DNA of 64,000 nt from Patescibacteria group bacterium (GTDB taxonomy: Bacteria > Patescibacteriota > Patescibacteriia > UBA11705 > DATKZF01): contig JBMORT010000006.1 in the NCBI GenBank assembly GCA_049319825.1, positions 80,012-144,011 on the forward strand. Reading direction: 5' to 3'. Below the pieces are notes generated by a model. The model had not been told where the DNA came from, did no database searches, and saw only the letters and a list, made by a program, of their open reading frames with translations. Below are positions 8,629 through 25,185 of this stretch, one piece after another. The number at the start of each line of letters is the position of its first letter. Position 1 is the stretch's first letter. A program made the translations under genes and the position numbers.

Positions 8629-8631
8629 TTT

Positions 8632-8883: not shown

Positions 8884-8904
8884 CTCCTAGCGTTTTAATT
8901 ATAT

Positions 8905-9276: not shown

Positions 9277-9298
9277 TTTTGCGAATAAATTGTAAAAT

Positions 9299-9664
9299 AT
9301 GAAACCTAATATTAAAAAAGGCGACAAAGTGCAGATCATCGCCGGCAAAGACAGAGTGAAGAAGACAAAGAAAGGCGAAAAGACTTACAAAGCGAATCAA
9401 GGCAAGGTTTTGCAGGTTTTGCCGTCTCGGGGTAAAGTCGTGGTCGAAGGCCTGAATATTAGAATTAAGCATGTCAAACCGAAGAGAGCCGGTGAAAAGG
9501 GACAAAAAATCGAAGTGCCGGCGCCAATTCAAATATCAAACGTAATGTTGCTTTGTCCGCGTTGCAGCAAATTAACGCGCGTTGGTTATAAGGTTTCTAA
9601 AAATGAAAAAGGCAAAGTAAAAAAAGTTCGATACTGTAAAAAATGTAAAGAATCCATTGATTAA
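9299..9664 (+). CDS. rplX: 50S ribosomal protein L24 (KOW) with a C-terminal CxxC...CxxC zinc-ribbon extension
   Basis: KOW motif (KKGDKVQIIAGKD) plus a C-terminal CPRCSKL...YCKKCKE. Confidence 0.88.
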   Translation: MKPNIKKGDKVQIIAGKDRVKKTKKGEKTYKANQGKVLQVLPSRGKVVVEGLNIRIKHVKPKRAGEKGQKIEVPAPIQISNVMLLCPRCSKLTRVGYKVSKNEKGKVKKVRYCKKCKESID

Positions 9665-9669
9665 TTTGT

Positions 9670-10221
9670 ATGAAAAGACTTTTTGAACAATATAAAGAAA
9701 AAGTAATACCTGCGCTTAAAGAAAAATTCGGTTATAAAAATGAAATGCAGGTTCCCAAATTGGCTAAAGTATCCATTAATGTTGGCATTGGCCGGGGATT
9801 AAAGGATAATGATTATTTGGAATCCGTGAAGAAATCGCTTCAGCGAATTACGGGCCAGCAGCCGGTGGAAACAAAAGCGAAAACATCCATTTCCAATTTT
9901 AAAATCAGGGAAGGCATGGTGGTGGGCGTTCGGGTAACTTTACGAGGTTGGCGCATGTATGATTTTATTGAAAAATTGGTTAATATCACTTTGCCGAGAG
10001 TACGCGATTTCCGCGGGCTTGATCCGGATAATTTCGATGGGCATGGTAATTACTCGATCGGATTTAAGGAGCATATTGCCTTTCCGGAAATCAGATCCGA
10101 TGAATTGGAAAATATTCACGGCCTGGAAGTCAATATCACCACTACCGCTGATACGGATGAAGAAGGTTACGAGTTATTGAAGTTAATGGGCTTCCCATTT
10201 AAAGAAAAAGATAATAAATAA
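9670..10221 (+). CDS. rplE: 50S ribosomal protein L5
   Basis: L5 conserved blocks ([31 protein letters not shown]). Confidence 0.93.
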
Positions 10222-10226
10222 TATAT

Positions 10227-10412
10227 ATGGCAACCAAAGCACAAGTTAATAAATCGAACAGAAAACCTAAATATTCTACACGCGTGGTCAGACGATGTTG
10301 GCGTTGCGGCCGGCCGAAAGGCTACATGCGAGATTTTGATTTGTGCCGAATTTGTTTTAGAGAATTAGCGGAAAAAGGCGAGCTGCCTGGAATCACCAGA
10401 AGCAGCTGGTAA
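10227..10412 (+). CDS. rpsZ: 30S ribosomal protein S14, zinc-binding type Z
   Basis: 61 aa with CWRCGRP...CRICFRE, the Zn-type S14 pattern. Confidence 0.9.
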
Positions 10413-10442
10413 GAATTTATCAGAAAATAATTTACATAATTT

Positions 10443-10832
10443 ATGCTTACAGATACAATAGCAGACATGTTAACCAGAATTAGAAACGCTTCGGCGGTTA
10501 AGAAAGCTGAGGTCACTATGCCTTATTCCAAGCTTAAGTTTGCTATCGCCCAGATTTTGAAGCAAGAAGGATACATTAAGGATGTCCAGAAAAAAGAAGA
10601 AAAATTCGGAGAAATATCTATCGCGCTCAAATATACGAATGGTCAACCGGCCATTAGAAATATTAAAAGAGTATCGAAAACCGGAAGACGGATTTATGTG
10701 GGCAAAGACCATATGCCTCGGGTGCTTAACAATTTGGGCATCGCCATTGTGTCTACTTCAAAAGGTATAATGACGAATAAACAAGCCCGAAAAGCAGGCG
10801 TGGGTGGAGAAGTAATTTGTGAAATATACTAA
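10443..10832 (+). CDS. rpsH: 30S ribosomal protein S8
   Basis: [16 protein letters not shown]... is the S8 N-terminus. Confidence 0.93.
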
Positions 10833-10833
10833 T

Positions 10834-11379
10834 ATGTCAAGAATCGGAAAAAAACCAATTAATATTCCAGCGGGTGTTTCCGCCACTATCGATGGCCATA
10901 CCGTGAAGATCAAAGGTCCAAAAGGGGAATTGAATCAGACAATTCATCCCAGCATTAAAGTTGAACAAAAAGACGGTCAATTGGTTTTTGAAATCTCACA
11001 GTTAGATAACAAAAAAGCCAATGCTTTTTGGGGATTATTCAGAAGCTTGGTGAATAACATGATCATTGGCGTGACTGAAGGTTTTGAAAAAAAATTGGAA
11101 ATCAACGGCGTCGGTTACAAAGCCAATGCCGGCGGCAAGAAGATCACTTTGAATGTCGGCTATTCTCATCCGGTTGAATTTGAATTGCCGGACGGAATTA
11201 CGGCCGCGGTTGATGCGAATGTTATCACTATCAGCGGTATTGATAAACAGTTGGTCGGAGAAGTGGCCGCCAATATTCGAAAAATCAGAAAACCAGAACC
11301 GTATAAAGGCAAAGGTATTAAATATGCGGATGAAGTGATTATTCGAAAAGCGGGTAAGACAGTTAAATCAGCCGAATAA
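10834..11379 (+). CDS. rplF: 50S ribosomal protein L6
   Basis: MSRIGKKPINIPAGV... The ATG at 10834 is preferred to the upstream GTG at 10819. Confidence 0.9.
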   Translation: MSRIGKKPINIPAGVSATIDGHTVKIKGPKGELNQTIHPSIKVEQKDGQLVFEISQLDNKKANAFWGLFRSLVNNMIIGVTEGFEKKLEINGVGYKANAGGKKITLNVGYSHPVEFELPDGITAAVDANVITISGIDKQLVGEVAANIRKIRKPEPYKGKGIKYADEVIIRKAGKTVKSAE

Positions 11380-11381
11380 TA

Positions 11382-11747
11382 TTGATTATAATAATTATGA
11401 CAAATAGGATGAAAATTAAAGATCAGAAAAGACAGCTGCGCAAACGCCGTGTCAGGGCGAAAGTTTTTGGTACGGCGAAAAGGCCGAGAATGAGCGTTTA
11501 TAAAAGTTTGAATAATTGCTATATTCAATTGATTGATGATGGAGCGAAAAAGACTTTGCTGGCGATGGATGATCGCCAATATAAGGGAGCCAAAGCCAAA
11601 AGAGCCGAACAGCTTGGTGATGCGCTGGCGAAAGCGGCGATTAAGGCCGGCATTGAAGTGGTTGTTTTTGACCGCGGCGGATTTAGGTATCATGGGAGAA
11701 TAAAAGCGCTTGCCGAAGCGGCTAGAGCGGCTGGATTAAAATTTTAA
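11382..11747 (+). CDS. rplR: 50S ribosomal protein L18
   Basis: RRVRAKVFGTAKRPRMSVYKSLNNCYIQLID is the L18 pattern. The exact start is uncertain (alternative ATGs at 11397 and 11409). Confidence 0.87.
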   Translation: MIIIIMTNRMKIKDQKRQLRKRRVRAKVFGTAKRPRMSVYKSLNNCYIQLIDDGAKKTLLAMDDRQYKGAKAKRAEQLGDALAKAAIKAGIEVVVFDRGGFRYHGRIKALAEAARAAGLKF

Positions 11748-11767
11748 CTTTTTATAAATTTTAAGAT

Positions 11768-12367
11768 ATGTTTAAAAATAGGAAAAATAGATTTGCCGAA
11801 AAGGAATATAACCAGCAGCTGATTCATTTAGCGAGAGTAACGCGAGTTATGGCCGGCGGTAAAAGGATGCGTTTCCGCGCGACAGTGGCGATCGGTGACG
11901 GCAATGGTCGGGTGGGATTCGCGGTGGCTAAAGGAGCCGACGTGACATTAGCGATCAATAAGGCGGTCAGAAAAGCGAAGAAAAATTTGATAGTCGTGCC
12001 GATTATCAATAAAACCATACCGCATGAGGTTCGCGTCAAATACAAATCAGGCAAGCTGCTGCTTAAACCGGCGCCGATCGGCACGGGTATTAAGGCGGGC
12101 AGCGTCGTCAGGCAAATTTTGGAACTGGGTGGAGTTCCGAATGTTATTGGTAAGATACTGGGAACCCGTAATAAATTGATAAACGCTCAAGCGGTGATCA
12201 TTGCGTTGTCCAGCTTTAAAACGGACGGTCTTAAGCTTGATAAAACTCAGCCGAAAAAAGCGGCTGACGAAAGATTTGGCAAATCATTCGCGAAACCCGC
12301 AAGAGCTAGGAAAGCGTCGGATCGACGGGGCAAAAAAATTGATGATAAATCAACAGATAAGAAATAA
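11768..12367 (+). CDS. rpsE: 30S ribosomal protein S5 with a C-terminal Lys-rich extension
   Basis: S5 dsRBD and C-terminal domain (RVTRVMAGGKRMRFRATVAIGDGNGRVGFA). Confidence 0.92.
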   Translation: MFKNRKNRFAEKEYNQQLIHLARVTRVMAGGKRMRFRATVAIGDGNGRVGFAVAKGADVTLAINKAVRKAKKNLIVVPIINKTIPHEVRVKYKSGKLLLKPAPIGTGIKAGSVVRQILELGGVPNVIGKILGTRNKLINAQAVIIALSSFKTDGLKLDKTQPKKAADERFGKSFAKPARARKASDRRGKKIDDKSTDKK

Positions 12368-12369
12368 TT

Positions 12370-12849
12370 ATGCCACTACATTTGCATACAATTAAAACAG
12401 CCAATAAAAAGCCGCGGAAACGGGTTGGCCGAGGCAGCGGTTCTGGGCGCGGCACCTATGCCGGCCGAGGACTCAAGGGTCAAAGAGCCAGATCCGGCGG
12501 AAAAAAAGGGCTGAAGATCAAGGGATTCAAATCCAATTTGCTTAGGATTCCCAAACTTCGCGGTTTTAACAGTCCAAAGCCCAAAAAGCAAATAGTAAAA
12601 CTGTCAATACTAAATAAATACTTCAATGACGGCGATTCCGTTAATCCTAGGGAATTAGCGGCTAAGGATTTAATCAAAGACGTGAAAATCGGCGTGAAGG
12701 TTTTATTGGATGCGAAAACATCCAAAAAATTGAATTTTCAGAATTGTTGGTTTTCAAAATCAGCTGAAAATGTTATCATTAAATCCGGAGGAAAAATTCA
12801 AAGGGAAGATTCACCGGCTACGGCCAAAGAGCAGCGCGAAAAAAAATAA
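12370..12849 (+). CDS. rplO: 50S ribosomal protein L15
   Basis: RVGRGSGSGRGTYAGRGLKGQ. It follows rpsE directly, so there is no L30 gene between them. Confidence 0.9.
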   Translation: MPLHLHTIKTANKKPRKRVGRGSGSGRGTYAGRGLKGQRARSGGKKGLKIKGFKSNLLRIPKLRGFNSPKPKKQIVKLSILNKYFNDGDSVNPRELAAKDLIKDVKIGVKVLLDAKTSKKLNFQNCWFSKSAENVIIKSGGKIQREDSPATAKEQREKK

Positions 12850-12900
12850 TTTTGTCTCTGCCCATCCTTCTTTTTTCCCTCTGCTTACCCCAATATCAAT

Positions 12901-14172
12901 ATGTGGCAAAAACTTGTCCAAATCTGGAAAATAAAAGATCTACGAAACAGCATAGTTTTTGTTTTAGCCATGTTGGCGGTTTTCCGATTGGCGGCGCACA
13001 TTCCCATTCCCGGAATAAATATTGAAAATTTAAGAGAATTTTTTTCATCAAATGACATTTTGGGTTTGATGAATATATTTTCCGGCGGCGGCATGCAAAA
13101 TTTTTCCATTGTGATGATGGGAGTGGCTCCATATATTACCGCTTCCATTATTTTTCAGCTGCTGGCGATGATCATTCCCAAATTGGAAGAAATGAATAAA
13201 GAAGAAGCTGGTCGTCAAAAAATAAACCAATATACGCGCATCGCCACTATCCCGATGGCGCTGCTTCAGGCTTATGGCATGATTCGTATTCTTTCAACGT
13301 CTCCCCAGCCGATCATTGAGGATTTGAATCCTTTTCGATTTGTCGCCATGTTGATTACCATTACCGCCGGCACCATGTTTTTGGTCTGGATCGGAGAATT
13401 GATATCGGAGAAAAAAATCGGTAATGGCATTTCACTTTTAATATTTGCCGGCATTATCGCCAGCATTCCGACAGCGCTTCAGCAGGTGGTGATAAACTTT
13501 GACCGTTCTCAATTGATCACGTTAGTCGTATTTGTGGCGATCGCCGTTGTGACGATTGTCGGTGTGGTAATTATCACCGAGGGGCAGCGAAAAATTCCGG
13601 TTTCTTACGCCCGAAGAGTGCGCGGCATGAAAATGTACGGCGGCACCAGCACTCATTTACCCCTCAGAGTTAACCAGGCCGGTGTTATTCCCATTATTTT
13701 CGCCATTTCCATTATTTTATTTCCACCCATGGTCGCTCAGTTTTTCGTGAACGCCCAAACCGCATTTATAGCCAGATTGGCGCAGTTTGTGATTGACGTT
13801 TTCCAGAATCAATGGTTTTACGGCATTATGTATTTTGTCTTGGTTTTCGGTTTCACATATTTTTACACGGCGGTTATCTTCCATCCGGGACAGATTGCCG
13901 AAAATTTACAAAAACAAGGCGGATTTATTCCCGGCATCAGGCCCGGCCAGCATACCGAACAATACTTGAATAACACGATCAAACGAATCACTTTTTTGGG
14001 AGCGCTATTTCTGGGAGTGATCGCCATACTGCCATTGGTGATGCAGCAAGCGACCGGCATGACATCTTTGGTCATCGGCGGCACCAGTTTGCTGATCGTC
14101 GTTAGCGTGGTCATCGAAACGGTCAAACAAATTGAAGCGCAGATGGTCATGCGAGATTACGACGGTTTTTAA
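12901..14172 (+). CDS. secY: Preprotein translocase subunit SecY
   Basis: 10-TM protein with SecY signatures (MMGVAPYITASIIFQLL, GGTSTHLPLRVNQAGVIPIIFA). Confidence 0.95.
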   Translation: MWQKLVQIWKIKDLRNSIVFVLAMLAVFRLAAHIPIPGINIENLREFFSSNDILGLMNIFSGGGMQNFSIVMMGVAPYITASIIFQLLAMIIPKLEEMNKEEAGRQKINQYTRIATIPMALLQAYGMIRILSTSPQPIIEDLNPFRFVAMLITITAGTMFLVWIGELISEKKIGNGISLLIFAGIIASIPTALQQVVINFDRSQLITLVVFVAIAVVTIVGVVIITEGQRKIPVSYARRVRGMKMYGGTSTHLPLRVNQAGVIPIIFAISIILFPPMVAQFFVNAQTAFIARLAQFVIDVFQNQWFYGIMYFVLVFGFTYFYTAVIFHPGQIAENLQKQGGFIPGIRPGQHTEQYLNNTIKRITFLGALFLGVIAILPLVMQQATGMTSLVIGGTSLLIVVSVVIETVKQIEAQMVMRDYDGF

Positions 14173-14206
14173 TTATAAATCAGTTACTGAATTAAATTAT
14201 AAATTG

Positions 14207-14233
14207 ATCCCGCACATTCTCGCGGGATTTTTA
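14207..14233 (+). terminator. Hairpin plus T-run (intrinsic terminator or attenuator) between secY and adk
   Basis: ATCCCGC-acattct-GCGGGAT followed by TTTTT. Confidence 0.5.
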
Positions 14234-14267
14234 ATAGACTTTTTGACCGGCTTACGTTACAATAAAA

Positions 14268-14918
14268 TTGAATATTATGAAAAACATTATTTTTATCGGC
14301 CCGCCCGGATCCGGCAAAGGCACTCAAACTCGGCAATTGGCCGCCGCGAGGCAGCTACCGCTAATATCAACCGGTGCGCTGCTGAGAAAAGAAGTTCAGC
14401 AAGAGACCCCGATCGGCCGAGATATAAAAAATGACCTGTATTCCGGGGAATTAGCGCCGGATGATATTGTCAATAAAATGATATTGCACATCTTAGACGA
14501 TACGGGGCCAAATTTCATATTGGATGGTTATCCGAGAAACATTAATCAGGCCAGGACAATTGTTGGTTTTTTAAAAGAGAAAAAGTGGTCGATGATCATA
14601 TTTGAATTGAAACTGCCTGATCGCATCGCCATCGAGCGCATCAGCGGCAGACGGACGTGCGGTTGCGGGCGCGTTTATCATTTGGTTTATGATCCACCCA
14701 AAAATGACGAGATTTGCGATGTCTGCGGCCGAAAATTGGCGATCCGTGATGATCAGCGGCCGTCGGTAGTTAAAAACAGATTGGACCTTTACCACGACAT
14801 TACCGAGCCGATGATAAAATATTTGCAAAGTCAGCATGATATTGACATTGAATATCACCAGATAGATTCAACTCGAGATATCAATGATGTATTTAAAGAC
14901 ATCACTTCTAAAATATGA
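14268..14918 (+). CDS. adk: Adenylate kinase with a Cys4 zinc lid
   Basis: P-loop GPPGSGKGTQ; lid CGCGRVYH...CDVCGRK. Confidence 0.93.
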   Translation: MNIMKNIIFIGPPGSGKGTQTRQLAAARQLPLISTGALLRKEVQQETPIGRDIKNDLYSGELAPDDIVNKMILHILDDTGPNFILDGYPRNINQARTIVGFLKEKKWSMIIFELKLPDRIAIERISGRRTCGCGRVYHLVYDPPKNDEICDVCGRKLAIRDDQRPSVVKNRLDLYHDITEPMIKYLQSQHDIDIEYHQIDSTRDINDVFKDITSKI

Positions 14919-15688
14919 TTATCATCAAAACTCCTCTGGAAATCGATACCATGAGAACCGGCGGTAAAATATTGGCTTCGGTTTTGTTTGAGGTCGAGAA
15001 AAATTTGGCGCCCGGAGTTAGCGCTCAGCAGCTTGATGAGTTAGCGGAAAAATTAATCAGGGCCAATGGCGGCCGGCCGTCGTTTAAAGGATATGGCTCA
15101 AAAAATAATCCGTATCCGGCGACTTTATGCGTGTCGGTCAATGATGAAGTTGTCCATGGCATACCCACCGGTGATAAAATATTTAAGACAGGCGATATTG
15201 TCAGTTTGGACATCGGCATGCAATACCCGGCCAAAGGCGGCACGTACACGGACATGGCGGTCACCGTCGGCGTGGGCAAAATAAGCAAGCCAGCCAAGCT
15301 TTTAATAAAAACTACCAAAAAAGCTTTGGAAAATGGCATAACTCAATGTCGCGGAGGCAATTTATTGTCGCAAGTATCGGCGGCAATATACCAAACGGCA
15401 AAAAAACAAGGTTTTTCAGTGGTCAGATCATTGGTCGGTCATGGCGTCGGGAAGCAGGTTCATGAAGATCCGCAGATTCCCAATTTCGTGTCTGACGATC
15501 GAGATATAATTTTAAAGCCGGGCATGACTTTGGCTTTGGAACCGATGGTGAATTTGGGGGATTATCAGGTGGAGCTGCTCAATGATGGTTGGACATTCTC
15601 CACAGCCGATGGCAAGCTTTCCGCTCATTTTGAGCATACGGTGCTGGTGACAGACGGTGAACCAGAAGTGCTGACGCGTTTATCGTAG
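14915..15688 (+). CDS. map: Methionine aminopeptidase type I
   Basis: MetAP metal-ligand context (VHGIP, GHGVGKQVHEDP, FEHTVLVT); overlaps the adk stop by 4 nt. Confidence 0.93.
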   Translation: MIIIKTPLEIDTMRTGGKILASVLFEVEKNLAPGVSAQQLDELAEKLIRANGGRPSFKGYGSKNNPYPATLCVSVNDEVVHGIPTGDKIFKTGDIVSLDIGMQYPAKGGTYTDMAVTVGVGKISKPAKLLIKTTKKALENGITQCRGGNLLSQVSAAIYQTAKKQGFSVVRSLVGHGVGKQVHEDPQIPNFVSDDRDIILKPGMTLALEPMVNLGDYQVELLNDGWTFSTADGKLSAHFEHTVLVTDGEPEVLTRLS

Positions 15689-15775
15689 CCAAAAACGATG
15701 AGTGAAAAAAGTAAAACGACTATTATACCAATACGCGATTTTTTCTTTCTCATTTTTAATTTTATTTTTAATTGT

Positions 15776-16174
15776 ATGCAGTTACTCGGCATTGATTACG
15801 GTAAAAGCAAAGTTGGATTGGCGCTGGGCGATGATATCACCAAGCTGGCTTTTGCATTGAAGACCATTAAAAACGAAGGCAACGATCGATTGGTTAAAAA
15901 TATAAAAGAATTAGTCAAAGAAGAAGCCGTTGAGTTAATAGTCATCGGTAAACCCATCAATCTGCAAGGTCAGTCCGAGGTTTCCAAGGATTTGCAGGAA
16001 TTTTTCGATGAGCTCGCAGCCGAATATTCGGTTGTTTGGCAAAACGAGCAGCTGACGACCAAACAAGCGGAAAGTCTGGCGAAAACAATTCCGGGCAAAC
16101 CGGTGGTGCTTAAAAAAGTTGATGATAAAATAGCGGCCATGATTATTTTACAGTCATATCTTGATACAGTTTAA
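15776..16174 (+). CDS. ruvX: Putative pre-16S rRNA nuclease / Holliday-junction resolvase-like YqgF (RuvX)
   Basis: LGIDYGKSKVGLALGD N-terminus is typical of YqgF. The ATG at 15776 is preferred over the track start at 15698. Confidence 0.8.
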   Translation: MQLLGIDYGKSKVGLALGDDITKLAFALKTIKNEGNDRLVKNIKELVKEEAVELIVIGKPINLQGQSEVSKDLQEFFDELAAEYSVVWQNEQLTTKQAESLAKTIPGKPVVLKKVDDKIAAMIILQSYLDTV

Positions 16175-16317
16175 GCACCAAACAACAAATTACAAAAAAA
16201 GTGACCAAATTTCAATTTTAAAATTTCAAATATTTAGTAGTTGGAGCTTGGATATTGGATATTGTGATTTATCCGTCGACTCTGCTCGGGACAGGTTTGT
16301 AGTTTGGTGCTTGTGAT

Positions 16318-17037
16318 TTGTTATTTCGCTTTTTTATGTATTCAAAAGACTTCGCCATAACATTAGCCAAAAGGAGCGCGGATGACGCCTCCAATTTTTA
16401 TATACTTTACAGCCAAAAAAATGGAATGCAGACCGTTAAAGTTCGCGGCGCGAAAAGATCGCTGAGCAAAATGGCCGGCCATCTAGAACCGCCGGCTTTG
16501 GTCGAAGTGTTTGTTGCCAGCGGCAGGAAAATAAATTATCTGGCCGGCGCCAATTTGATTAAAAGGTTTAATCTTAATTCACTGGAAAAATACCGCCAGC
16601 AATTTTGGCTGGTCAAAGTGATTATGGAATTATTCAAGGAAAATAGCGGCGATCTGACCATGTGGCTGCTGCTTAATGAATATTATCAGCAGCTGGATGT
16701 GATTCGCACCGATAAAGAGGCGGAGCTGCTAAAAAATATTTTTATCTGGCGGCTGGGCGCTGTCTTGGGCTTAAAACCGGATTTGATAAACTGCCATGAC
16801 TGCGGCCGTCAGGCGAGCGGATTTTATTTAAACATGAATAAAGGATCGCTGGTGTGCGAAAATTGTCACAGCGGAGGCGGATATTTGCTGTCCGGCCGGA
16901 TATTGGAGTCGTTGGGGCATATTTACGCTGTGGGTTTGGGTAGTATTTTTAATGAATTGGTCGGCAGCGATGAACTGTTCGCTTTTCACAATTTTACAAT
17001 AAAATATTGGCAGCATCGGCTGGAAACAAAACTGTAA
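16318..17037 (+). CDS. recO: DNA repair protein RecO-like (OB fold plus C-terminal Cys4 zinc motif)
   Basis: Length of about 240 aa; CHDCGR...CENCHSG zinc motif; the N-terminal region is consistent with RecO. The exact start is uncertain. Confidence 0.62.
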   Translation: MLFRFFMYSKDFAITLAKRSADDASNFYILYSQKNGMQTVKVRGAKRSLSKMAGHLEPPALVEVFVASGRKINYLAGANLIKRFNLNSLEKYRQQFWLVKVIMELFKENSGDLTMWLLLNEYYQQLDVIRTDKEAELLKNIFIWRLGAVLGLKPDLINCHDCGRQASGFYLNMNKGSLVCENCHSGGGYLLSGRILESLGHIYAVGLGSIFNELVGSDELFAFHNFTIKYWQHRLETKL

Positions 17038-17047
17038 ATCGCCGCGC

Positions 17048-17076
17048 TTGACTAAAAAAAAAATTCGTGATAAATT
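17048..17076 (+). promoter_or_regulatory. Sigma70-like promoter (TTGACT-17-TAAATT) for the small zinc-ribbon ORF
   Basis: -35/-10 spacing is 17 nt; an AAAGGAGGA RBS precedes the ATG at 17105. Confidence 0.45.
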
Positions 17077-17104
17077 GAACCATCAATCTTGAAAGGAGGA
17101 TTCC

Positions 17105-17311
17105 ATGACCCATCAGAACAACGCGACACCAACTCAGATTGATTGGCGACAGTTGCCCGAATGCGGAATATTTGACACGAAATGTCCGTGGTGCGGCAAT
17201 GAGGACGGTAATTTTTTTAAAAAGGCCGAAACAACGGCTGGAGAAAAAGATGTCTGGATTTGCAATAAGTGTTGTCGATTATTCAAACTGGGCAATATGA
17301 TCAGCTGGTAG
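17105..17311 (+). CDS. Small zinc-ribbon protein (68 aa), hypothetical
   Basis: CPWCG...CNKCC four-Cys arrangement; has its own promoter and a strong RBS. Confidence 0.55.
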   Translation: MTHQNNATPTQIDWRQLPECGIFDTKCPWCGNEDGNFFKKAETTAGEKDVWICNKCCRLFKLGNMISW

Positions 17312-17363
17312 ATCGATCTTAAAAAGGTCGATTTTTACGTAAAAAACGGGAAAAGATAGCTGT

Positions 17364-17392
17364 TTACAAAAATGAAATATTTTGATAAGATG
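17364..17392 (+). promoter_or_regulatory. Sigma70-like promoter (TTTACA-17-TAAGAT)
   Basis: Precedes the AGGAGG RBS and the ATG at 17449. Confidence 0.4.
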
Positions 17393-17448
17393 GGGCAAAT
17401 TGAAGGTTGTTGATCTTTGGAAAAAAGGAGAACAGGAGGTGATGCCCG

Positions 17449-17697
17449 ATGGCCAAGTCAGGAAAGTCAAGAAGCGAGCGCAAACATATTCGTTTGGTGA
17501 AATCCACTGATCGGCGATTGAAATTGGCGACCGTTTCTTTGAATGTCGAAGACTTGTCTTTTGGCAAAGGAGCGGATAATGCTTGTCCGTATTGCTACAA
17601 TGCCAGAGGCAATCAAACAAAAACGATTGGATATGACGGCCGCGTGTATTACATCACCAGCTGCAATCGGTGCGGTAGAGATTATCGAAGACTGTAA
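17449..17697 (+). CDS. Small zinc-ribbon protein (82 aa), hypothetical
   Basis: CPYC...CNRCG motif; an AGGAGG lies 8 nt upstream. Confidence 0.55.
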   Translation: MAKSGKSRSERKHIRLVKSTDRRLKLATVSLNVEDLSFGKGADNACPYCYNARGNQTKTIGYDGRVYYITSCNRCGRDYRRL

Positions 17698-17771
17698 ACG
17701 TCAATCATTGATTGGCGTTTTTAAGTTTGACGGCGGCAAACCAAAAATTCATGCGGCGCATGAATTTTTGG

Positions 17772-17848
17772 TGGTGGGTGTATCTGGACTCGAACCAGAG
17801 ACCTTTACGATGTCAACGTAACGCTCTAACCAGCTGAGCTATACACCC
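17772..17848 (-). tRNA. tRNA-Val (anticodon GAC)
   Basis: Cloverleaf on the reverse complement: GGGTGTA acceptor stem, anticodon loop TTGACAT, T-loop TTCGAGT, encoded CCA. Confidence 0.85.
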
Positions 17849-17947
17849 GCCTTCGCCCTTCGATAAACTCAGGGCTTCAACGGGCAGGCCCGGTAATTTG
17901 GCCTGCCAGCCGAAGCTCCGACGAGCAACGAGAGGAGGAGCGAAGGC

Positions 17948-18024
17948 TGGTGGGTGCGGATGGACTTGAACCATCGACCCCAACGTTATAAGCGTTGTGC
18001 TCTAACCAACTGAGCTACGCACCC
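17948..18024 (-). tRNA. tRNA with anticodon UAU (Ile, reading AUA)
   Basis: Reverse complement folds with acceptor GGGTGCG, anticodon stem CAACG/CGTTG, loop CTTATAA, T-loop TTCAAGT, encoded CCA. Confidence 0.72.
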
Positions 18025-18201
18025 ATCGGTATTGGAAATTGGTTATTGGTTTGGGGCAATGGGGATTGAAAGTTAGGATTCCAATGTTCATCTTTTCAAT
18101 TTTTACGGTGGCTTCATTCCCCTGATTCATGCTCCATGATAAAAAACGGTTCTTGCGATATTTTATCACAATTGAAATATTTTGTAAATAGCAATTATCA
18201 C

Positions 18202-18228
18202 AAAAGCCTTCGAAACGAAGGCTTTTTA
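18202..18228. terminator. Bidirectional intrinsic terminator
   Basis: AGCCTTCG-aaa-CGAAGGCT flanked by an A-run and a T-run; lies just downstream of the stop of the minus-strand 653-aa gene. Confidence 0.55.
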
Positions 18229-18242
18229 TGTTGCGGCTGGAA

Positions 18243-20204
18243 TTATTGTGTAAGCAGTAAATCTTGGCTGATATCGATCGCTTTTAAGGTTGCCAATGCC
18301 GGATTAAAATCATCTTTCGAGGTTATCGGATCTCCCAGGTTATAGTTAAAGAAATAAGAATCGGGCATGTCATCGACGAGTTTCGCCCAGTCGTTTCCGT
18401 ACAGCGCTTGCGCCACTTCTTCTGTCTCGATCCATCTGAGAACGCCGTGAGAATCAACGGCATAAACATTGGGGATGGAAATGATTTTTACCATTCTGAC
18501 CCCCGGCCTGTAGGTCACATTGCCGTCAAGTCTGATAGTGGCGAGGAGCGAGTCGCCGATTGTTTTGACATTGGAAAAATCGGGATACCAGGTCATGTAC
18601 GTATTTCGACTCGGAAAAACATGTCTTTTCTGATCTTCTCCGTAATAATAAACGGTATCTAAAGATCCTTTAAAAATGTCTCCGGGATTAAGATTCACAT
18701 CAGTGGCGCACATTTCCGGATAATCGGCAATATATAAAGTTTTGATTTGTTTAAGAGCGGTTTGGGAATCGGACCATAATAAAATGTCTTCTTTTTTTAT
18801 GCCGCCATAAAGCAGGCCCACTTTAATTTGGTGGTGCCATCCGGCGTCGAGTTTGACAACAGAAAAGTTTATGCTGGAGCAACCATATTTTTCGACTTTA
18901 ATCCAAACATCATCGTGATCCATGTCATTACCCTTGTCTTCAAATTGATAAGTCATGGATCCGTCGGCGGAAGATTCCGTCAGCGCGTAAGGCGTGTTTA
19001 TATGTCGCTCTGTCCCATCCGGGTTTACAATGTATAAGTCATATGACAACAAATCGCAGTCAATAACGCAAGGTATTACCGGAATGTTGGTTTCGCATAC
19101 TGATGAATAATTGGTTAAGGTGACCGTTTTCGATTGTTCAACCGCCAATTGTGAGTTTTCCCAGAGAGATATGGTTTCCTTAGCCATGCCCTGGTACAGT
19201 AATTTTACTTTTATTTGATGGGTCCAGCGGCCATTGACTTTAAATACGGTGAATTTGATGTTTTGGCAATCGTTTTGTTCGGCGATTATCCAGATGTCGT
19301 CAAAATCCATGTCCGCGCCTTTGTCTTCGAATTTATAAAGATAGGTGTTTTCATCAAGCGTCTCTTTGCGCACAAAGCTGGAATTTGAATGTCTTTCAGT
19401 GCCGTCCGGATTGATAATGTATAGATCGTACGAAATTTTTTCACAGTTTAGTGTGCATTCGGCCGGAGGGATGTTTTTATCGACGTAATTGATGGTGTCG
19501 CTGATGGCGCCGGAAGTGGCGCCGCTGGAATTTTTGAATTTGGCATACACGATTTTTGTTCCGAAATTTTCGGTCAACGTCCAACTTTTGCCAGATTGAT
19601 AAGCTTCCCACTGGGCGCCTGTAAAGCTCTGATCATTGGAGATCATCATTTGGTTGACATTACTGGCAATTAAGCTGAGACTGACCGTTCGGCTGTTTGT
19701 CTCGGCGGCATTGTTATTGATAACGATGGCGGTGTTGTATGGATATTGCGGAGTAAATACACCGCCGCCGCCACCACCACCGCCACCGCATCCCGGATTT
19801 ATTGAAGTTACTTCCAGCCGTAAAACAACTGTCGCCCCGGTGCCGTTCATGGTTACGGAATTGGTAATGCAAGCCGGGCTGGTAGTGTAAGCGTTTGATC
19901 CGGATTGTTTGGTTATTTTAAGATATTGAGACGAACTGCTGGTACTGAAAGCGATGCTGGATCCGGCATCGAGAGTAATATCAATATAATTGGACTGAAT
20001 GTCAATGTTTGTGGCCAGGCTGCCATTTTGGGCGATAACCGTCGCGAGGGTGGGCGAAGCGTCAATGGTATTGACCTCTAAATTGGTGTTTGAACTGAAT
20101 GATATGTCATTGATGCCAAAAACAGCAAACGGGTAGCCCAAAAGCAATGTAAATAAAAGAATCACCAACGTGTTTATCAAATTAAATTTATTTGATTTAT
20201 TCAT
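18243..20204 (-). CDS. Secreted repeat protein (653 aa) with a signal peptide, a Gly9 tract and a duplicated ~115-aa Cys-containing domain
   Basis: N-terminal hydrophobic signal. Two homologous blocks (C.L.C..ISYDLYI.NPDGTERH...FEDKG.DMD.DD.WI...). 9 nt separate it from the upstream gene. Confidence 0.8.
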   Translation of the reverse strand: MNKSNKFNLINTLVILLFTLLLGYPFAVFGINDISFSSNTNLEVNTIDASPTLATVIAQNGSLATNIDIQSNYIDITLDAGSSIAFSTSSSSQYLKITKQSGSNAYTTSPACITNSVTMNGTGATVVLRLEVTSINPGCGGGGGGGGGVFTPQYPYNTAIVINNNAAETNSRTVSLSLIASNVNQMMISNDQSFTGAQWEAYQSGKSWTLTENFGTKIVYAKFKNSSGATSGAISDTINYVDKNIPPAECTLNCEKISYDLYIINPDGTERHSNSSFVRKETLDENTYLYKFEDKGADMDFDDIWIIAEQNDCQNIKFTVFKVNGRWTHQIKVKLLYQGMAKETISLWENSQLAVEQSKTVTLTNYSSVCETNIPVIPCVIDCDLLSYDLYIVNPDGTERHINTPYALTESSADGSMTYQFEDKGNDMDHDDVWIKVEKYGCSSINFSVVKLDAGWHHQIKVGLLYGGIKKEDILLWSDSQTALKQIKTLYIADYPEMCATDVNLNPGDIFKGSLDTVYYYGEDQKRHVFPSRNTYMTWYPDFSNVKTIGDSLLATIRLDGNVTYRPGVRMVKIISIPNVYAVDSHGVLRWIETEEVAQALYGNDWAKLVDDMPDSYFFNYNLGDPITSKDDFNPALATLKAIDISQDLLLTQ

Positions 20205-20206
20205 AA

Positions 20207-23200
20207 TTATTGTTCAGACAAAGTCACGTATCCGCCATACACGCTATCGGCATTGCCGGTATTGACATAGATTGTCAAATAATTGGTGGTGCTGGAAGCG
20301 GTGTCGGTTATATTGATTTCAGTGCCGACAACTCCTGCCCCTAAATTCGTGGCGGTGGTGTTATTGGTGATGTCGTTGGCGTAAACGGTAACGGTGTTTG
20401 TTGTGTCCGAACCGTATACCATGGCCGCGGTCGCCTGAAATCCGGTGGGGATGGCAATGGTTGCCGCCATTTGCGTGGTACCGCTGCTGGCGGTGACCGA
20501 CGTGCCATCAGTGGCGATGGTGGCGTTATCGTCATTGTCATCGGAAATGAAATCCGCTGGTAATAATTTGAGCCGAGTGGTCGAGCCGAACCAGCCGTTT
20601 CGTACCCAGCTGAGATTACCATTGCCGTCAGTTTGCAAAAATTGTCCGGAATTGCCGTCATTCGCCGGCATGGTATATGTGGTATTTTGAGTCATGGCCG
20701 CCGGCGGCTGGAAAATGATTTCATAATCGGTCGGACCTTGCTCGGAATATATTCTTAATTGCCCGTCAGTGCCGTTGCGCCCTGTCCTGATGGCGCCGGT
20801 GGTATCTATTGCGTAGGCAGGAGCGTTGGTGCCGACGCCCAATCGCTTATTGGTATTATCCCAGAAAAAGTTGGTATTATCTTGTGTTATCAAGCCTGAC
20901 GTTCCCGTGAATACGACTGAGCCGGCAGTCAAATCAGAAATAGTTAATGTTTCTCCCGCATTCAGCAAGATATCGTCTCCGGCGGTTGCCGGTGATAAAT
21001 TGGTGCCGGTTCTGGACCAGTAGTTGGTGCCGGCCGAGCTAACACAATCAGTCCAGGCGCCGGATTGATAGCATCTGAATTTATTGGTATTGGTATTGTA
21101 ATAAATCGCACCGTTAGTGCCGGCCGGATCACCGGCATCGCTTTTTTTATCCAAAATCAAAAGATCGGGAGTGGTTGAACCGGCGCCGCCGGCGCCGATT
21201 TGAACATAAGCTGTAGTGCCGGTGCCGGCCGGTTGCAGCGTGATATTTCCGGTAGTGGTGGAAAAGCTGGAGGCGGCGCCGCCTTGCATGGCCAGCGCTG
21301 AAGCCGATGTTAAATTAAGGTTGCCCGATGAAGTTGACCAGGTTGAGGTGGCGCCGGCGGTGAGTGTCAGCGCGCCGGAAGAAGTAAATTGCGAGGCGGA
21401 TGTCGGGGTGAGATTGACCGCCCCTGATCCAGTGGCGTTGAAGTTTCCCGATGTCAGATTAAAAACTATCGGTATGCCCGCGGCGGTGGTGATTGACGCG
21501 CCGTTATCGTACGCGGTTTGCAAGGTGGCGGAAGCCCCGGTGGTATCGCAGTCTTTCCAGGCGCCGCTTTCATAGCAGCGGAATTTATTGGTGGTTGAGT
21601 TATAATAGGTGAGCCCGTTTGAACCGGCCGGATCAGCGCCAATTGAGCCAAGCAATAATTCGCCGGTTATCGTGGTCCTGTCAGTGCTGCCATTGCCCAA
21701 ATTTGAATTGCCTTGAACACCAAGATCGCCGGTTAGCGTTAATCCGGTAAATTGGGGGCTGTCCGCTGTGCCCAATCCGAGAGATGTTCTGGCGGTGTTG
21801 CCGGATTCTGCGACCCAAGTGGTGCCATTGCCGACTATAAAGTCGCTATCAGCGGATGATAATCCAGCAATGGCGGCCAAGGCGCCACTGAGAGAAAAAT
21901 TAATTGTGTCTGTGCCCGCGTTTCCGGTGACGTACATCCCTGTTCCCGCGGTTAAAGCTAAAGTGTCTGTCGACGCGTCCGCTACCGGGTTTGTTCCCAG
22001 CGGAGTGGAAATCGTTTCAAAAAGATTTTGAGCAGCGGCAGAAACAGTGGCCCACTGAGGGTCTGCCCCGGCGCCCTGAGTTTGCAGGACTTGGCCGCTG
22101 GTTCCCGGAGACAGAGTCACCCAATCAGATCCGTCAAAGTAAAGGACTTCGCCCTGAGCGGCGGTAATTGAGGCGATATCATCGAGGTAAGAATCCCAAG
22201 CCTGAACATTGGAGCCGATAGCTAATCCCAAGTTTGATCGAGCGGTGGTGGCGTCGGTGGCGCCAGTGCCGCCTTTGGCGATGCTCAGAGTGCCGCCCAA
22301 ATTGTCCAATGTTAAATTAGCTTCAGTGATATCAATATCGATTTCATTATTGATGGCGTCGTTCGAAACGTTGACTTTGCTTGATCCGGCATTGATATTC
22401 TTAAATTCCAAGTCAGCGCCGGTTTTTTGTAAAAATGGTCCGACCCCGCCAACACCTTGATTCGAGGCGGTATTAGTTTCTCCGCCGCCGCCTGCCGCCC
22501 ACTGCGGATTGGCGCCGGCGCCTTGCGTTTGCAAAAATTGTCCGGAGGTGCCGGCGGCGAGCCTGACCCAGTTGGTGCCGTTAAAGTAAAGGACATCGCC
22601 CTGAGCTTCGCCGGATATCGTTAAATCGGTTACGGTGGTTGAACTATAAGATCCGGAAACGTCCCCGCTGAAAGAAGTGGCAGTGGTCAAGTCATCAGTG
22701 CTGACCTTGTCCCAATTGGCAGTGCTTGTCTGCTGCCAGTTGGCGCCGTCGCCGATAATAATGTTGTTGTTTGTCGGAGTTAAACCGGCGATGTCATCGA
22801 GCTGGACATCCCAAGCCTGAACGCTAGTACCAATGTTCGCATCGAGAAGCAAAGTTCCGGTTGCAGCAGGAATAGTGACAGTAACATCGGCGCCGGGATC
22901 GGCAGCGGTTAACTGAACTTCATTGCCGTCAGCGGAAGTGCCTTCAAACCAGAGAGAATTGCCGTCGTTTCCCGCGGTAGCGGTAAATGCCGCTCCTGAA
23001 GCGACATCGCCAACATCTGTAACATCACCTGAGCCTGCGGCAGCCGCCCACTGCGGATTGGCGCCGGCGCCTTGCGTTTGCAAAAATTGTCCGGAGGTGC
23101 CGGCGGCGAGCCTGACCCAGTTGGTGCCGTTAAAGTAAAGGACATCGCCCTGAGCTTCGCCGGATATCGTTAAATCGGTTACGGTGGTTGAACTATAAGA

Positions 23201-23482
23201 TCCGGAAACGTCCCCGCTGAAAACGGTGCTGGTCGTTAAATCGTCAGCATTGTTTTTATCCCAGGCGGCGGCGTTTAGCCAGGTGGCATTGCCGAGGGCA
23301 TCGGATTGAAGAATAAAACCGGCTCCGGCCCCGTTTGAAAACAATAAATTACCCTGAACGCTGAGATTTCCGCCGGTGGTGATGTTATTGCCAATAGTGG
23401 TGGCTGCCAAAGTGGATGGGCAAATCACTAAATTTAATAAAAGGATTATTCCAAAGGCCTTTAATTTTTTTTTGATGTTCAT
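20207..23482 (-). CDS. Large secreted Gly/Thr/Ser-rich repetitive surface protein (1091 aa)
   Basis: Signal peptide. Three copies of the motif LYF(N/D)G(T/S)(N/D)WV.L..GTSGQ.LQTQGAGA.PQWA. Forms an operon with the 653-aa gene. Confidence 0.85.
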   Translation of the reverse strand: MNIKKKLKAFGIILLLNLVICPSTLAATTIGNNITTGGNLSVQGNLLFSNGAGAGFILQSDALGNATWLNAAAWDKNNADDLTTSTVFSGDVSGSYSSTTVTDLTISGEAQGDVLYFNGTNWVRLAAGTSGQFLQTQGAGANPQWAAAAGSGDVTDVGDVASGAAFTATAGNDGNSLWFEGTSADGNEVQLTAADPGADVTVTIPAATGTLLLDANIGTSVQAWDVQLDDIAGLTPTNNNIIIGDGANWQQTSTANWDKVSTDDLTTATSFSGDVSGSYSSTTVTDLTISGEAQGDVLYFNGTNWVRLAAGTSGQFLQTQGAGANPQWAAGGGGETNTASNQGVGGVGPFLQKTGADLEFKNINAGSSKVNVSNDAINNEIDIDITEANLTLDNLGGTLSIAKGGTGATDATTARSNLGLAIGSNVQAWDSYLDDIASITAAQGEVLYFDGSDWVTLSPGTSGQVLQTQGAGADPQWATVSAAAQNLFETISTPLGTNPVADASTDTLALTAGTGMYVTGNAGTDTINFSLSGALAAIAGLSSADSDFIVGNGTTWVAESGNTARTSLGLGTADSPQFTGLTLTGDLGVQGNSNLGNGSTDRTTITGELLLGSIGADPAGSNGLTYYNSTTNKFRCYESGAWKDCDTTGASATLQTAYDNGASITTAAGIPIVFNLTSGNFNATGSGAVNLTPTSASQFTSSGALTLTAGATSTWSTSSGNLNLTSASALAMQGGAASSFSTTTGNITLQPAGTGTTAYVQIGAGGAGSTTPDLLILDKKSDAGDPAGTNGAIYYNTNTNKFRCYQSGAWTDCVSSAGTNYWSRTGTNLSPATAGDDILLNAGETLTISDLTAGSVVFTGTSGLITQDNTNFFWDNTNKRLGVGTNAPAYAIDTTGAIRTGRNGTDGQLRIYSEQGPTDYEIIFQPPAAMTQNTTYTMPANDGNSGQFLQTDGNGNLSWVRNGWFGSTTRLKLLPADFISDDNDDNATIATDGTSVTASSGTTQMAATIAIPTGFQATAAMVYGSDTTNTVTVYANDITNNTTATNLGAGVVGTEINITDTASSTTNYLTIYVNTGNADSVYGGYVTLSEQ
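22494..22673. repeat. ~180-bp direct repeat, copy 1, inside the 1091-aa gene
   Basis: Identical to 23044-23222 at the nucleotide level (both spurious minus ORFs translate to MSFTLTAPTGSGSPPAPPDNFCKRKAPAPIRSGR). Confidence 0.85.
23044..23222. repeat. ~180-bp direct repeat, copy 2
   Basis: See copy 1. Confidence 0.85.
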
Positions 23483-23695
23483 AAATAAAAATTTGATTTA
23501 TTCAAGAAATATAAATAAATTTATTTCATTTGGTTGAATAAATTATACCATAAATAGCAGTTTAAGAAAATGTGGACAATTATACTTTCCGTGTGGTAGC
23601 AATATAAAAGCGATATGGCGCTGCGATTTGACAAATTTGTATCCGAAGTTTAATATATTGTGTTGTTCGTTCTTTTTAAAAAGATAGGAGGTGCA

Positions 23696-24889
23696 ATGAG
23701 AGATTTCATCCATCTGGTTACGCCGCCGGATTTGCTGCTGCGCTATGCCATGGATAAAGAAAAGATAGCTCGAGAATACCCCAAAGGGTTTGAACATGCT
23801 CAAAGCATGGATCGTTTATTTCGAGCCATTGCCTCGCAGGAAGTATCCGATGCCAGGATGGCGATATCAGGCTGGCTTGAACAAACGGTCGGCGATGCGT
23901 TCCCTGCCGATATTTTATACGACATATTCACTGAAGCGATTCAGGAGGCCAAGGGGTTTCGCGAGGAATTGCTCAGAGAATTCGTGCCGGAGAAGGTGCG
24001 GTTTGTTTTCACGTCAGAAGGAATTTGCCGACCGACGAACGATCCCATCAATTTGCTTCGAATCATGCATGATCCCCCGGGAAATTCAATATATAGAAGG
24101 ATCAGATCATTTGAGGCGAATTTGTTTTTCAGCTTGGGGATGAGGTATTTGATTATGTTGATGAAAAATAAAAGTCGGGAAGCTTTTCTTTCTGATCTGA
24201 CAGAAATATTGGAAAGTGATTTTTTCTCCCGCGATTGCCACGGCGAATTCAGAAGAATTCTGGAAATCGTATATGATAAAAACAACTATCACCGATTCGT
24301 GAAATTTTTGGAAGCGGGCGAAAGCGCCAAACACATTTTTCGCTGGCCGTTATGGTTTAGAAAAATCAGTGTTTACGGCCGTGATATGTATGTTTTATAT
24401 GATAGCCGCGATAAGCGTATGCAGGACGTTTTTAGAAAAACATTGCTTGATTCAACCGCCGCCAATCCGATTGCCGCCGATGTAAACGCAATTACTTTCG
24501 TGTTCCTATCGGAGGAAGACCTAAAACAAGCTTTTGAATTGTTGACATCCAAAATATTCACTAATTTTGTCGGTGTAGTCAAGTATCGCATCGATGGAGA
24601 TGGCGATACCAATGGATACTCGGCGCGGACAAACGCTCCCAACAGACATTTTAAGGTCTGGCACCGGGGGAGATTGGTCGAGGTTCAAATGTTTTTATTC
24701 GGAAATTATTTTAATCGAAAATTTTCCATTGACGAGTCCAACCATCATCTTTATCGATTGCGCCAGGTTTGCGATGTCCTGCCGATGCTGGCGCCCCAAG
24801 ACGTTTATAATGTCGATTGGAAAGATGAGGAGCTTCTGCGCCAAATGCATCAATTGCAGATCTATCGTTCTTTGGCCAATTTTAATTAA
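23696..24889 (+). CDS. Hypothetical protein (397 aa); possible divergent RelA/SpoT-like nucleotidyltransferase fold
   Basis: AGGAGG RBS before the ATG at 23696. The C-terminal region KYRIDGDGDTNGYSARTN...LVEVQMF...HHLYR loosely matches RSH synthetase motifs (NGYxSxH, ExQIRT, HxxYK). Confidence 0.6.
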   Translation: MRDFIHLVTPPDLLLRYAMDKEKIAREYPKGFEHAQSMDRLFRAIASQEVSDARMAISGWLEQTVGDAFPADILYDIFTEAIQEAKGFREELLREFVPEKVRFVFTSEGICRPTNDPINLLRIMHDPPGNSIYRRIRSFEANLFFSLGMRYLIMLMKNKSREAFLSDLTEILESDFFSRDCHGEFRRILEIVYDKNNYHRFVKFLEAGESAKHIFRWPLWFRKISVYGRDMYVLYDSRDKRMQDVFRKTLLDSTAANPIAADVNAITFVFLSEEDLKQAFELLTSKIFTNFVGVVKYRIDGDGDTNGYSARTNAPNRHFKVWHRGRLVEVQMFLFGNYFNRKFSIDESNHHLYRLRQVCDVLPMLAPQDVYNVDWKDEELLRQMHQLQIYRSLANFN

Positions 24890-25010: not shown

Positions 25011-25086
25011 TGGTCGGGGTAGTGAGACTTGAACTCACGACCTCATGCACCCCATGCATGCGCGCTACCAACTGCGCTATACCCCG
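25011..25086 (-). tRNA. tRNA-Pro (anticodon GGG)
   Basis: Reverse complement CGGGGTA...anticodon loop ATGGGGT...T-loop TTCAAGT...TACCCCG-A-CCA. Confidence 0.82.
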
Positions 25087-25087
25087 A

Positions 25088-25185
25088 CATCATGGATCAT
25101 GGATCATGGATCATGGATCATGGATCATGGATCATGGATCATGGATCATGGATCATGGATCATGGATCATGAATCATGGATCAAT
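25088..25185. repeat. Heptanucleotide tandem array (GATCATG/CATGGAT), ~13.5 copies
   Basis: 12 perfect units plus 1 variant from 25091 to 25181, abutting the tRNA-Pro 5' end. Each unit contains GATC and CATG. Confidence 0.95.

Follow-up and report, generated by a model that had tools for sequence, protein, structure and literature searches.

The 64-kb window under study (positions 80,012 to 144,011 of contig JBMORT010000006.1, from a metagenome-assembled genome (MAG) of a Patescibacteria group bacterium of the Candidate Phyla Radiation (CPR)) harbours on its minus strand two adjacent genes, p1 and p2, which appear to encode a mosaic fibre protein and a secreted-type partner (Table 1; positions refer to the window). 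The p1 stop codon and the ATG of p2 are spaced by only 2 nt, and the pair is bordered by a promoter-like site and by a terminator-like hairpin (predicted fold of -15.7 kcal/mol, z = -4.3), in agreement with the two-gene operon and the open reading frames (ORFs) reported in a first-pass annotation of this DNA. The secreted nature claimed there for both proteins likewise holds, as far as can be read from the sequence: both N-termini consist of an n-region rich in Lys and Asn, a hydrophobic core and a c-region of small residues, with predicted cleavage between PSTLA and ATT in p1 and between PFAVFG and IND in p2. A homopolymer of nine adenines on the coding strand (23465-23473) forms codons 4-6 of p1 (KKK). 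Since A/T runs of at least 9 nt are so rare in the window (two in total, including this one), it could act as a slipped-strand on/off switch. The N-terminus of the p1 ortholog in a related species, MFMILKQKFK, does not contain the KKK triplet at the protein level.

Table 1 Features of the p1-p2 gene pair (window coordinates; aa, residues of the respective protein; AF2, AlphaFold2; pLDDT, predicted local distance difference test)
Feature	Position	Strand	Description	Evidence
p1	20207..23482	-	1091 aa, secreted-type, Thr/Gly/Ala/Ser/Asn-rich, putative mosaic fibre protein	ORF, composition, homologs
p2	18243..20204	-	653 aa, secreted-type, multi-domain	ORF, AF2
Promoter-like site	23579..23608	-	TTTATA-18-TATAAT, ~100 nt upstream of p1 ATG	Consensus match only
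Terminator-like hairpin	18203..18225	-	10-bp stem, 3-nt loop, then UUUUG, ~20 nt past p2 stop	Sequence
p1 signal peptide	23405..23482	-	aa 1-26, MNIKKKLKAFGIILLLNLVICPSTLA	Read from sequence
p1 shaft unit A1	23018..23287	-	aa 66-155, motif copy 1	Self-comparison, AF2
p1 repeat copy 1	23043..23222	-	aa 87-146	Exact self-match
p1 shaft unit A2	22472..22744	-	aa 247-337, motif copy 2	Self-comparison, AF2
p1 repeat copy 2	22494..22673	-	aa 270-329	Exact self-match
p1 shaft unit B	22025..22261	-	aa 408-486, motif copy 3	Self-comparison
p1 YYN unit 1	21443..21697	-	aa 596-680, YYN..NKFRCY.SGAW.DC, Cys636/Cys645 pair	Self-comparison; AF2 strands 625-644
p1 YYN unit 2	20894..21187	-	aa 766-863, YYN..NKFRCY.SGAW.DC, Cys804/Cys813 pair	Self-comparison, AF2
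p1 neck	20597..20893	-	aa 864-962, ends in degenerate motif GQFLQTDGNGNLSW	Kept in ortholog of related species up to tip divergence
p1 C-terminal tip	20210..20596	-	aa 963-1091, beta-sandwich/jelly-roll	AF2, block-mean pLDDT 72-94, mostly 80-94
p2 domain 1			aa 33-135, beta-sandwich	AF2
p2 Gly9 linker	19761..19787	-	aa 140-148, mixed GGN codons, no homopolymer	pLDDT <50 at residues 140-152
p2 domain 2			aa 153-242, beta-sandwich	AF2
p2 domain 3	19089..19466	-	aa 247-372, DUF4114-like beta-sandwich, 4 Cys, FEDKGADMDFDD motif	Self-comparison, AF2
p2 domain 4	18690..19073	-	aa 378-505, paralog of domain 3	Self-comparison, AF2
p2 C-terminal alpha/beta domain	18246..18683	-	aa 508-653	AF2

The shaft of p1 is built around a recurring motif, three copies of which had been noticed in the first pass. 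Two of them (GQFLQTQGAGANPQW, at aa 131 and aa 314) are as described, the third (GQVLQTQGAGADPQW, at aa 463) fits the pattern only loosely, as it reads LYFDGSDWV, and a fourth, degenerate one (GQFLQTDGNGNLSW) is located at aa 946. The motif belongs to a unit of ~55 aa (consensus GD.LY..G..W..L..GT.G..L.T.G.GA.P.W) that AF2 models as a four-strand meander. Only the repeat units, the two Cys-bridged YYN units and the C-terminal domain (aa 970-1091) of p1 are modelled confidently; block-mean pLDDT amounts to 80-94 over aa 101-150, which covers the four-strand unit of A1 (E114-147), and to 82-87 for units 2 and 3 (numbered by their motif copies).

Searches with p1 retrieved 467 homologous proteins, matching almost only aa 60-600. 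Those with names span the Planctomycetota, Nostoc, Scalindua, Parcubacteria and Deltaproteobacteria; some carry an S74 chaperone domain (PF13884), Gly_rich_2, a beta-helix or YadA repeats, many have PF26696 precomputed, and one bears the name "tail fiber domain-containing protein". A search with a 90-aa unit yielded 8,794 cluster representatives (of 1.84 billion) at E <= 1e-3, and individual proteins contained as many as 33 matched stretches. The tail-fibre family phrog_9851 was matched by 16 of 60 diverse unit instances, and other instances matched phrog_9729, phrog_38058 and a virion structural family. The motif is also present in gp48 of pelagiphage HTVC048P, whose gene is the fourth one downstream of gp44, the annotated tail-fibre gene. 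Foldseek comparison with the viral structure library BFVD returned, among its best matches, proteins carrying the annotation tail fibre, Stf side-tail-fibre repeat, C1q domain or virion protein (E down to 2.5e-13, low TM-scores). A profile of the 57-aa unit found nothing but noise in the PDB (antibodies, designed hydrolases), which marks the unit as a common module without a solved structure and, given its presence in thousands of protein clusters, as a worthwhile structural target. No usable family was obtained for p1 or p2 from sequence searches of Pfam, NCBIfam and the PDB; p1 matches DUF3344 (below cut-off) and phrog_677 weakly, and has no Pfam match to S74 (PF13884). By BLAST, p1 and p2 have no relatives among the remaining large proteins of the window (908, 1725 and 770 aa).

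Two motif copies lie within direct repeats that are identical over 180 of 180 nt. Identity over this length had been reported before, with the copy nearer the p1 start placed at 23044; it begins at 23043. The copies are offset by 549 nt, i.e. 183 codons, and are in frame. This block is the sole dispersed exact repeat of at least 30 nt in the window, and no inverted exact 30-mers were detected there. Immediately outside the block, units 1 and 2 are 50 % identical on the 5' side, with indels, and 39 % identical on the 3' side, about as expected at random. Unit 3 shares 72-73 % DNA identity with the other two over a 115-nt core; with the 73 % seen for this unit taken as identity per site, 180 matches in a row have a probability of ~1e-25. 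The block looks like a recent gene-conversion tract between older, diverged shaft modules. Gene conversion is favoured over a fresh tandem duplication because the latter would leave the full 549-nt period identical, whereas the edges of the block are sharp and its flanks diverged. Of the earlier alternatives, very recent duplication or ongoing recombination, it is recent recombination that is retained and duplication of a whole unit that is disfavoured.

Identical blocks within a surface protein might also be the paired repeats (template and variable) of a diversity-generating retroelement, or of some other system for targeted hypermutation, given that such retroelements are common in CPR genomes and aimed at surface ligand-binding proteins. 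The probability of this is close to negligible: the copies are identical and display no adenine-specific mismatches, both are in frame within one ORF, and it is the shaft, not the tip, that contains them. Moreover, no ORF of at least 200 aa other than p1 has more than one isolated Y[AVIMLC]DD match, so that nothing in the window points to a reverse transcriptase, and Pfam scans assigned the neighbours to housekeeping genes only.

The C-terminal tip of p1 was compared with the PDB by Foldseek and matched carbohydrate-binding modules (CBM6, CBM61, CBM35) and ephrin-receptor ligand-binding domains (target-normalised TM-scores of 0.35-0.58, E ~1e-3). Tips of the p1 type terminate ~10 proteins (390-1027 aa) that have different shafts, at 42-67 % identity, the highest value being reached by protein P0012. 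The converse is seen in the corresponding locus of a related species (L002, GCA_964411255.1), where gene order is the same as in the window and identity amounts to 76 % for valyl-tRNA synthetase (ValRS), 66 % for the NrnA-like protein and 58 % for p2. Retained in its p1 ortholog are the N-terminus, at 67 % identity across aa 1-249, and the neck (aa ~820-960); the ortholog differs in module order, does not have the YYN region and has a tip non-homologous to that of p1, with a sub-threshold C1q match and no match in the PDB. The orthologs are thus mosaics in tip and modules, which makes p1 a mosaic, probably fibrous protein and not merely a repeat protein.

The ortholog also holds a perfect repeat of its own, 668 nt in length and reaching a 100-N scaffold gap. 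Logan contig L005, from another sample, begins exactly 30 nt inside the end of this repeat, and two JGI contigs begin within it. As this repeat is perfect and contigs start inside it, intragenic recombination and assembly breakage recur in the p1 gene across lineages. This is in line with the proposed recombinational variability of the locus, which is probably unstable in this respect.

That the perfect repeat of p1 could be an assembly artefact, i.e. a false duplication or the collapse of a larger array, had been raised in the first pass. In favour of it, 180 nt exceed the length of typical short reads, so that no single read spans the block; p1 is not recorded as a called protein; and in the ortholog the scaffold gap is placed between identical 55-mers. 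An independent assembly is available as Logan contig L001 (run SRR32167788), which is free of mismatches to window positions 8243-22523 and breaks off 30 nt into repeat copy 2, whose first position is 22494. Logan contigs are taken here to be k=31 de Bruijn assemblies. A contig running from unique sequence into a repeat halts k-1 = 30 nt in where the graph truly branches. The exact stop of L001 at k-1 indicates that the reads hold the 180-nt block in two contexts, and argues against a false duplication. The ortholog's repeat behaves alike in another sample, and the copies in p1 are in frame within homologous but diverged modules. An artefact is quite improbable on this evidence, false duplication being excluded more firmly than a collapsed higher copy number, and the repeat is best regarded as real and as the mark of very recent recombination.

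The second protein, p2, was modelled with a mean pLDDT of 88.4 and a predicted TM-score (pTM) of 0.41, the latter being expected for domains that sit on flexible links. The model comprises a signal-peptide helix (residues 7-22), four beta-sandwich domains and a C-terminal alpha/beta domain. The Gly9 tract and the two homologous Cys-containing domains noticed previously were recovered, the latter with ~129 instead of ~115 aa: by self-comparison, aa 242-378 and 371-507 are ~50 % identical, with 4 Cys each. The DUF4114 matches of the homologs P0129 (33.8 bits) and P0138 (27.5 bits), both above the 27-bit cut-off, map to these duplicated domains (motif FEDKG.DMD..D), that of P0138 aligning to domain 3. 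PG_binding_1 is precomputed in 23 of the 45 p2 homologs listed and, in those rescanned, is positioned at or near the C-terminus, past the alpha/beta domain. The alpha/beta domain represents an independent module, found alone in other CPR proteins; it has no match in Pfam or the PDB, where profile searches returned noise only. A search of genome contigs with p2 as single protein detected one distant locus, sharing the C-terminal domain only. Whole-chain Foldseek retrieved generic Ig/FN3 arrays only, including GhpA of Aureispira, and was uninformative on function. The poly-Gly linker varies in length, with 9 Gly in p2 and ~11 in its ortholog at L002 (10001-11953). At another locus (L007), two adjacent p2-like paralogs of 599 and 866 aa share exact matches of 67, 50 and 47 nt (3804-4050 vs 6528-6774), which suggests gene conversion in the p2 family, too.

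A p2-like gene is preceded by a p1-like or fibre-tip gene in all five other loci examined. At L002, the p1 ortholog is located upstream of the p2 ortholog; at L007, a 569-aa gene and then a ~235-aa gene precede the p2-like gene; at L008, the upstream gene is partial (491 aa) and has a BclA_C-like tip (E 4.5e-5, below the Pfam cut-off); at L009, a gene of >3400 aa is followed by one of ~238 aa; and at L010, only the last 40 aa of the upstream gene are covered, which resemble the L008 tip. Contigs at these loci tend to end within or just before the fibre gene. Judged from these arrangements, p1 and p2 constitute a tightly coupled chromosomal gene pair conserved in relatives.

Such a pair of secreted-type, Thr/Gly/Ala/Ser-rich and beta-rich proteins, conserved next to core genes and with peptidoglycan-binding domains in the p2 family, might also serve as structural envelope components (an S-layer or a sheath, together with its wall anchor), the repeats providing only length or lattice. 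This alternative is considered unlikely: non-homologous tips on orthologs, together with one tip on unrelated shafts, are a signature of modules that confer specificity in ligand binding and not of a lattice protein, and the repeat unit is common to tail fibres.

The pair is flanked on one side by the ribosomal-protein operon, genes for SecY, Adk, Map, RuvX and RecO, and tRNA-Val and tRNA-Ile, and on the other side by a gene for a 409-aa protein, tRNA-Pro, the NrnA-like gene and the genes for ValRS, TyrRS and ArgRS. Pfam scans of the neighbours identified housekeeping functions only and no phage genes near the pair. The GC content of p1 (52.8 %) exceeds that of the window (44 %). This excess resides at codon position 2 (0.545 vs ~0.33 in neighbours) and reflects the Gly/Ala/Thr/Ser-rich composition, while GC at codon position 3 (GC3) is neighbour-like (0.557 vs 0.475-0.554); it is therefore not a sign of foreign origin, which was rejected for p1 on these grounds. 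The same observations bear on the possibility of a prophage remnant, with p1 as phage tail fibre and p2 as phage structural or lysis protein. Such an origin would accord with the unit being common to tail-fibre PHROGs and the pelagiphage protein, with the weak phrog_677 match of p1, with the tRNA genes flanking the pair and with the placement of the 409-aa neighbour on the opposite side in the relative. It is nonetheless highly improbable, considering the Sec-type signal peptides of p1 and p2, which virion fibres do not possess, the lack of any other phage gene nearby, the synteny of the locus amid housekeeping genes in a species at only ~58-76 % protein identity, the compositional nature of the GC excess and the mere three of 50,697 phage records that match p1, each across 3-5 % of its length.

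With moderate confidence, p1 is interpreted as a mosaic surface fibre made of tail-fibre-type modules and p2 as its wall-associated partner, the two forming a chromosomal two-gene unit. Overall, the interpretation given in the first-pass annotation is partly supported, and its repeat protein is refined to a probable mosaic fibre with a unit common to phage tail-fibre families and a tip swapped between orthologs, next to a protein of a family that often ends in a peptidoglycan-binding domain. In the proposed mechanism, p1 would be exported by the Sec pathway and assemble, presumably as a trimer, into a long beta-structured fibre with a shaft composed of short modules, the jelly-roll domain at the C-terminus serving as a distal ligand-binding tip that probably binds glycans. 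Co-expressed p2 would act as wall-associated partner or base of the fibre; association with the wall is the most likely role, since many family members end in PG_binding_1. Homologous recombination between the 180-nt copies could delete or add one 183-aa module in frame and change the length of the fibre, by about 13 nm of shaft provided that the value implied by the 550-Å Bd3182 model, ~0.7 Å per residue, applies. Exchange of modules and tip between lineages, on a larger scale, would alter specificity. By analogy, the fibre may mediate adhesion to a host or episymbiont partner.

A more far-reaching version, in which the two proteins form a CPR-specific host-attachment organelle with wall-tethered p2 bearing a p1 trimer, its reach tuned by RecA-mediated gain and loss of 183-aa modules and its specificity by tip swap, is doubtful at present. 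If true, tail-fibre modules encoded in the chromosome would be put to use, independently of phages, in recognition between episymbiont and host, in bacteria that lack an outer membrane. Apart from type IV pili and Pam pili, little is known of the means by which ultrasmall CPR bacteria recognize and hold their hosts, and the gene pair provides a concrete, testable candidate for a determinant of host specificity. The p1 locus is, in addition, a place where MAG assemblies systematically break.

Several observations weigh against the interpretation of p1 and p2 as surface fibre and wall-associated partner. The AF2 model of p1 has a mean pLDDT of 54, with values <50 in the shaft save for the repeat units. 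A poor monomer model is expected, since p1 probably folds only as an oligomer; the model covers the monomer, and a trimeric, surface-displayed fibre is a proposal. The structural matches of the tip are weak (TM ~0.5, E ~1e-3), a profile from the whole-protein alignment yielded only noise and no similarity to any solved structure in the PDB, and phmmer and profile searches against the PDB revealed no sequence match of p1 to the solved fragments of the MAT fibres considered below. On the side of p2, there is no Pfam match at E <= 1, and neither p2 nor its ortholog P0122 contains PG_binding_1, so that wall association rests on homologs. The stop of L001 does not fix the copy number of the repeat, as an array of more periods of block and spacer would look alike, and the exact structure of the L002 repeat is uncertain since it abuts the scaffold gap. 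The exact p1 protein is missing from a collection of 15 billion proteins and from the gene-position index, although p2 of the same MAG is present (100 % match to NCBI protein ACOZBH_02720); p1 not being on record while p2 is, it was possibly skipped or marked as pseudogene in the source annotation.

Among the neighbouring features, the gene for the 409-aa protein (23660-24889, plus strand) flanks the pair on the side of p1 in the window and on that of p2 in L002 (11997-13232; 50 % identical), evidencing a local rearrangement around the fibre pair. The 409-aa protein has no match in Pfam, NCBIfam or the PDB. Directly upstream of tRNA-Pro(GGG) (25011-25086, minus strand), the heptamer ATCATGG is repeated in 13.6 tandem copies (25089-25183, 97 % matches). 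The tRNA-Ile carries the anticodon TAT (UAU) and is found beside tRNA-Val(GAC) in both genomes (window 17948-18024, minus strand; L002 13379-13454). tRNA-Ile(UAU) is uncommon among bacteria, AUA usually being read by a lysidine-modified CAU tRNA.

Farther away, a gene for a 227-aa protein (32435-33118, plus strand) has a sub-threshold match to NCBIfam CPR_pilus_PamT (E 1.4e-13, 50.8 bits vs a cut-off of 240) and also to the Pam pilin C domain. Up to position 44364, the genes that come next encode proteins of 287 aa, 908 aa (fn3/CarboxypepD_reg/SpaA-like), 1725 aa (no Pfam match, motif INYQGKLTD..G.P..G.Y) and 770 aa (Wzy_C and TPR). The region 32435-44364 has a raised GC content (47-49 %) and may represent a Pam-type CPR pilus or surface locus. 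Pam pili were recently described in CPR (bioRxiv 10.64898/2026.03.03.709456).

The gene pair can be compared with four known kinds of system. Proteins that carry DUF4114 and PG_binding_1 and associate with the wall are approached by the p2 homologs, which possess both domains; p2 and its ortholog end in the alpha/beta domain, without PG_binding_1, and p2 scores below every Pfam threshold. The BclA-type exosporium and collagen-like filaments of Bacillus resemble p1 in combining a repetitive shaft of variable length with a jelly-roll tip, and the fibre gene of L008 adds its sub-threshold BclA_C match; p1 differs from them by the lack of collagen GXY repeats and by a tip that is CBM-like and not C1q. 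Phage tail fibres share the repeat unit itself with p1, as judged from the PHROG families and the pelagiphage protein near a tail-fibre gene, and are organized alike, with a conserved proximal end, a mosaic shaft, an exchangeable distal tip and recombination-prone internal repeats. Unlike these, p1 is chromosomal amid housekeeping genes, has a Sec signal peptide, no S74 of its own and no virion genes nearby.

Among characterized systems, p1 is most closely analogous to the mosaic adhesive trimer (MAT) fibre superfamily of Bdellovibrio bacteriovorus, whose ~1000-aa members have a signal peptide, are annotated as tail-fibre/YapH-like, function in prey recognition and carry swapped C-terminal tips (beta-sandwich, TNF/C1q-like, C-type lectin, S74) on a long repetitive shaft; a beta-rich domain that is conserved, ~130 aa long and placed directly after the signal peptide is their hallmark (Caulton et al. 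2024, PMC10769870). CPR genomes are absent from the taxa in the supplementary tables of that study (PMC10769870). p1 likewise possesses a signal peptide, as read from its sequence, and an exchangeable C-terminal tip on a conserved shaft, and its relatives have weakly C1q- or BclA_C-like tips or, in some homologs, S74. Similarity of the p1 tip to that of Bd2734 is weak (Foldseek E 5.5e-3, TM 0.29). Unit-like sequence starts ~7 aa past the predicted cleavage site of p1, and since aa 33-65 already resemble half a repeat unit, a separate MAT-type N-domain is doubtful. The PDB holds C-terminal MAT fragments only, and the comparison of p1 with MATs covers these; for this reason and for the lack of detectable homology to them, p1 is said to work like a MAT or tail fibre and not to be one. 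MAT fibres are displayed on the surface of a bacterium that lives on other bacteria, and the organization of p1 follows the same logic. Among the differences, CPR cells do not have an outer membrane, and p1 has a conserved downstream partner in p2, none having been described for MATs. Taken together, the locus is a typical member of a widespread though poorly characterized class, that of mosaic surface fibres, and does not constitute a system of a new kind; its novelty is modest and consists in its occurrence in CPR, in a p2-type partner that is conserved and in the clear traces left by ongoing recombination within the gene.

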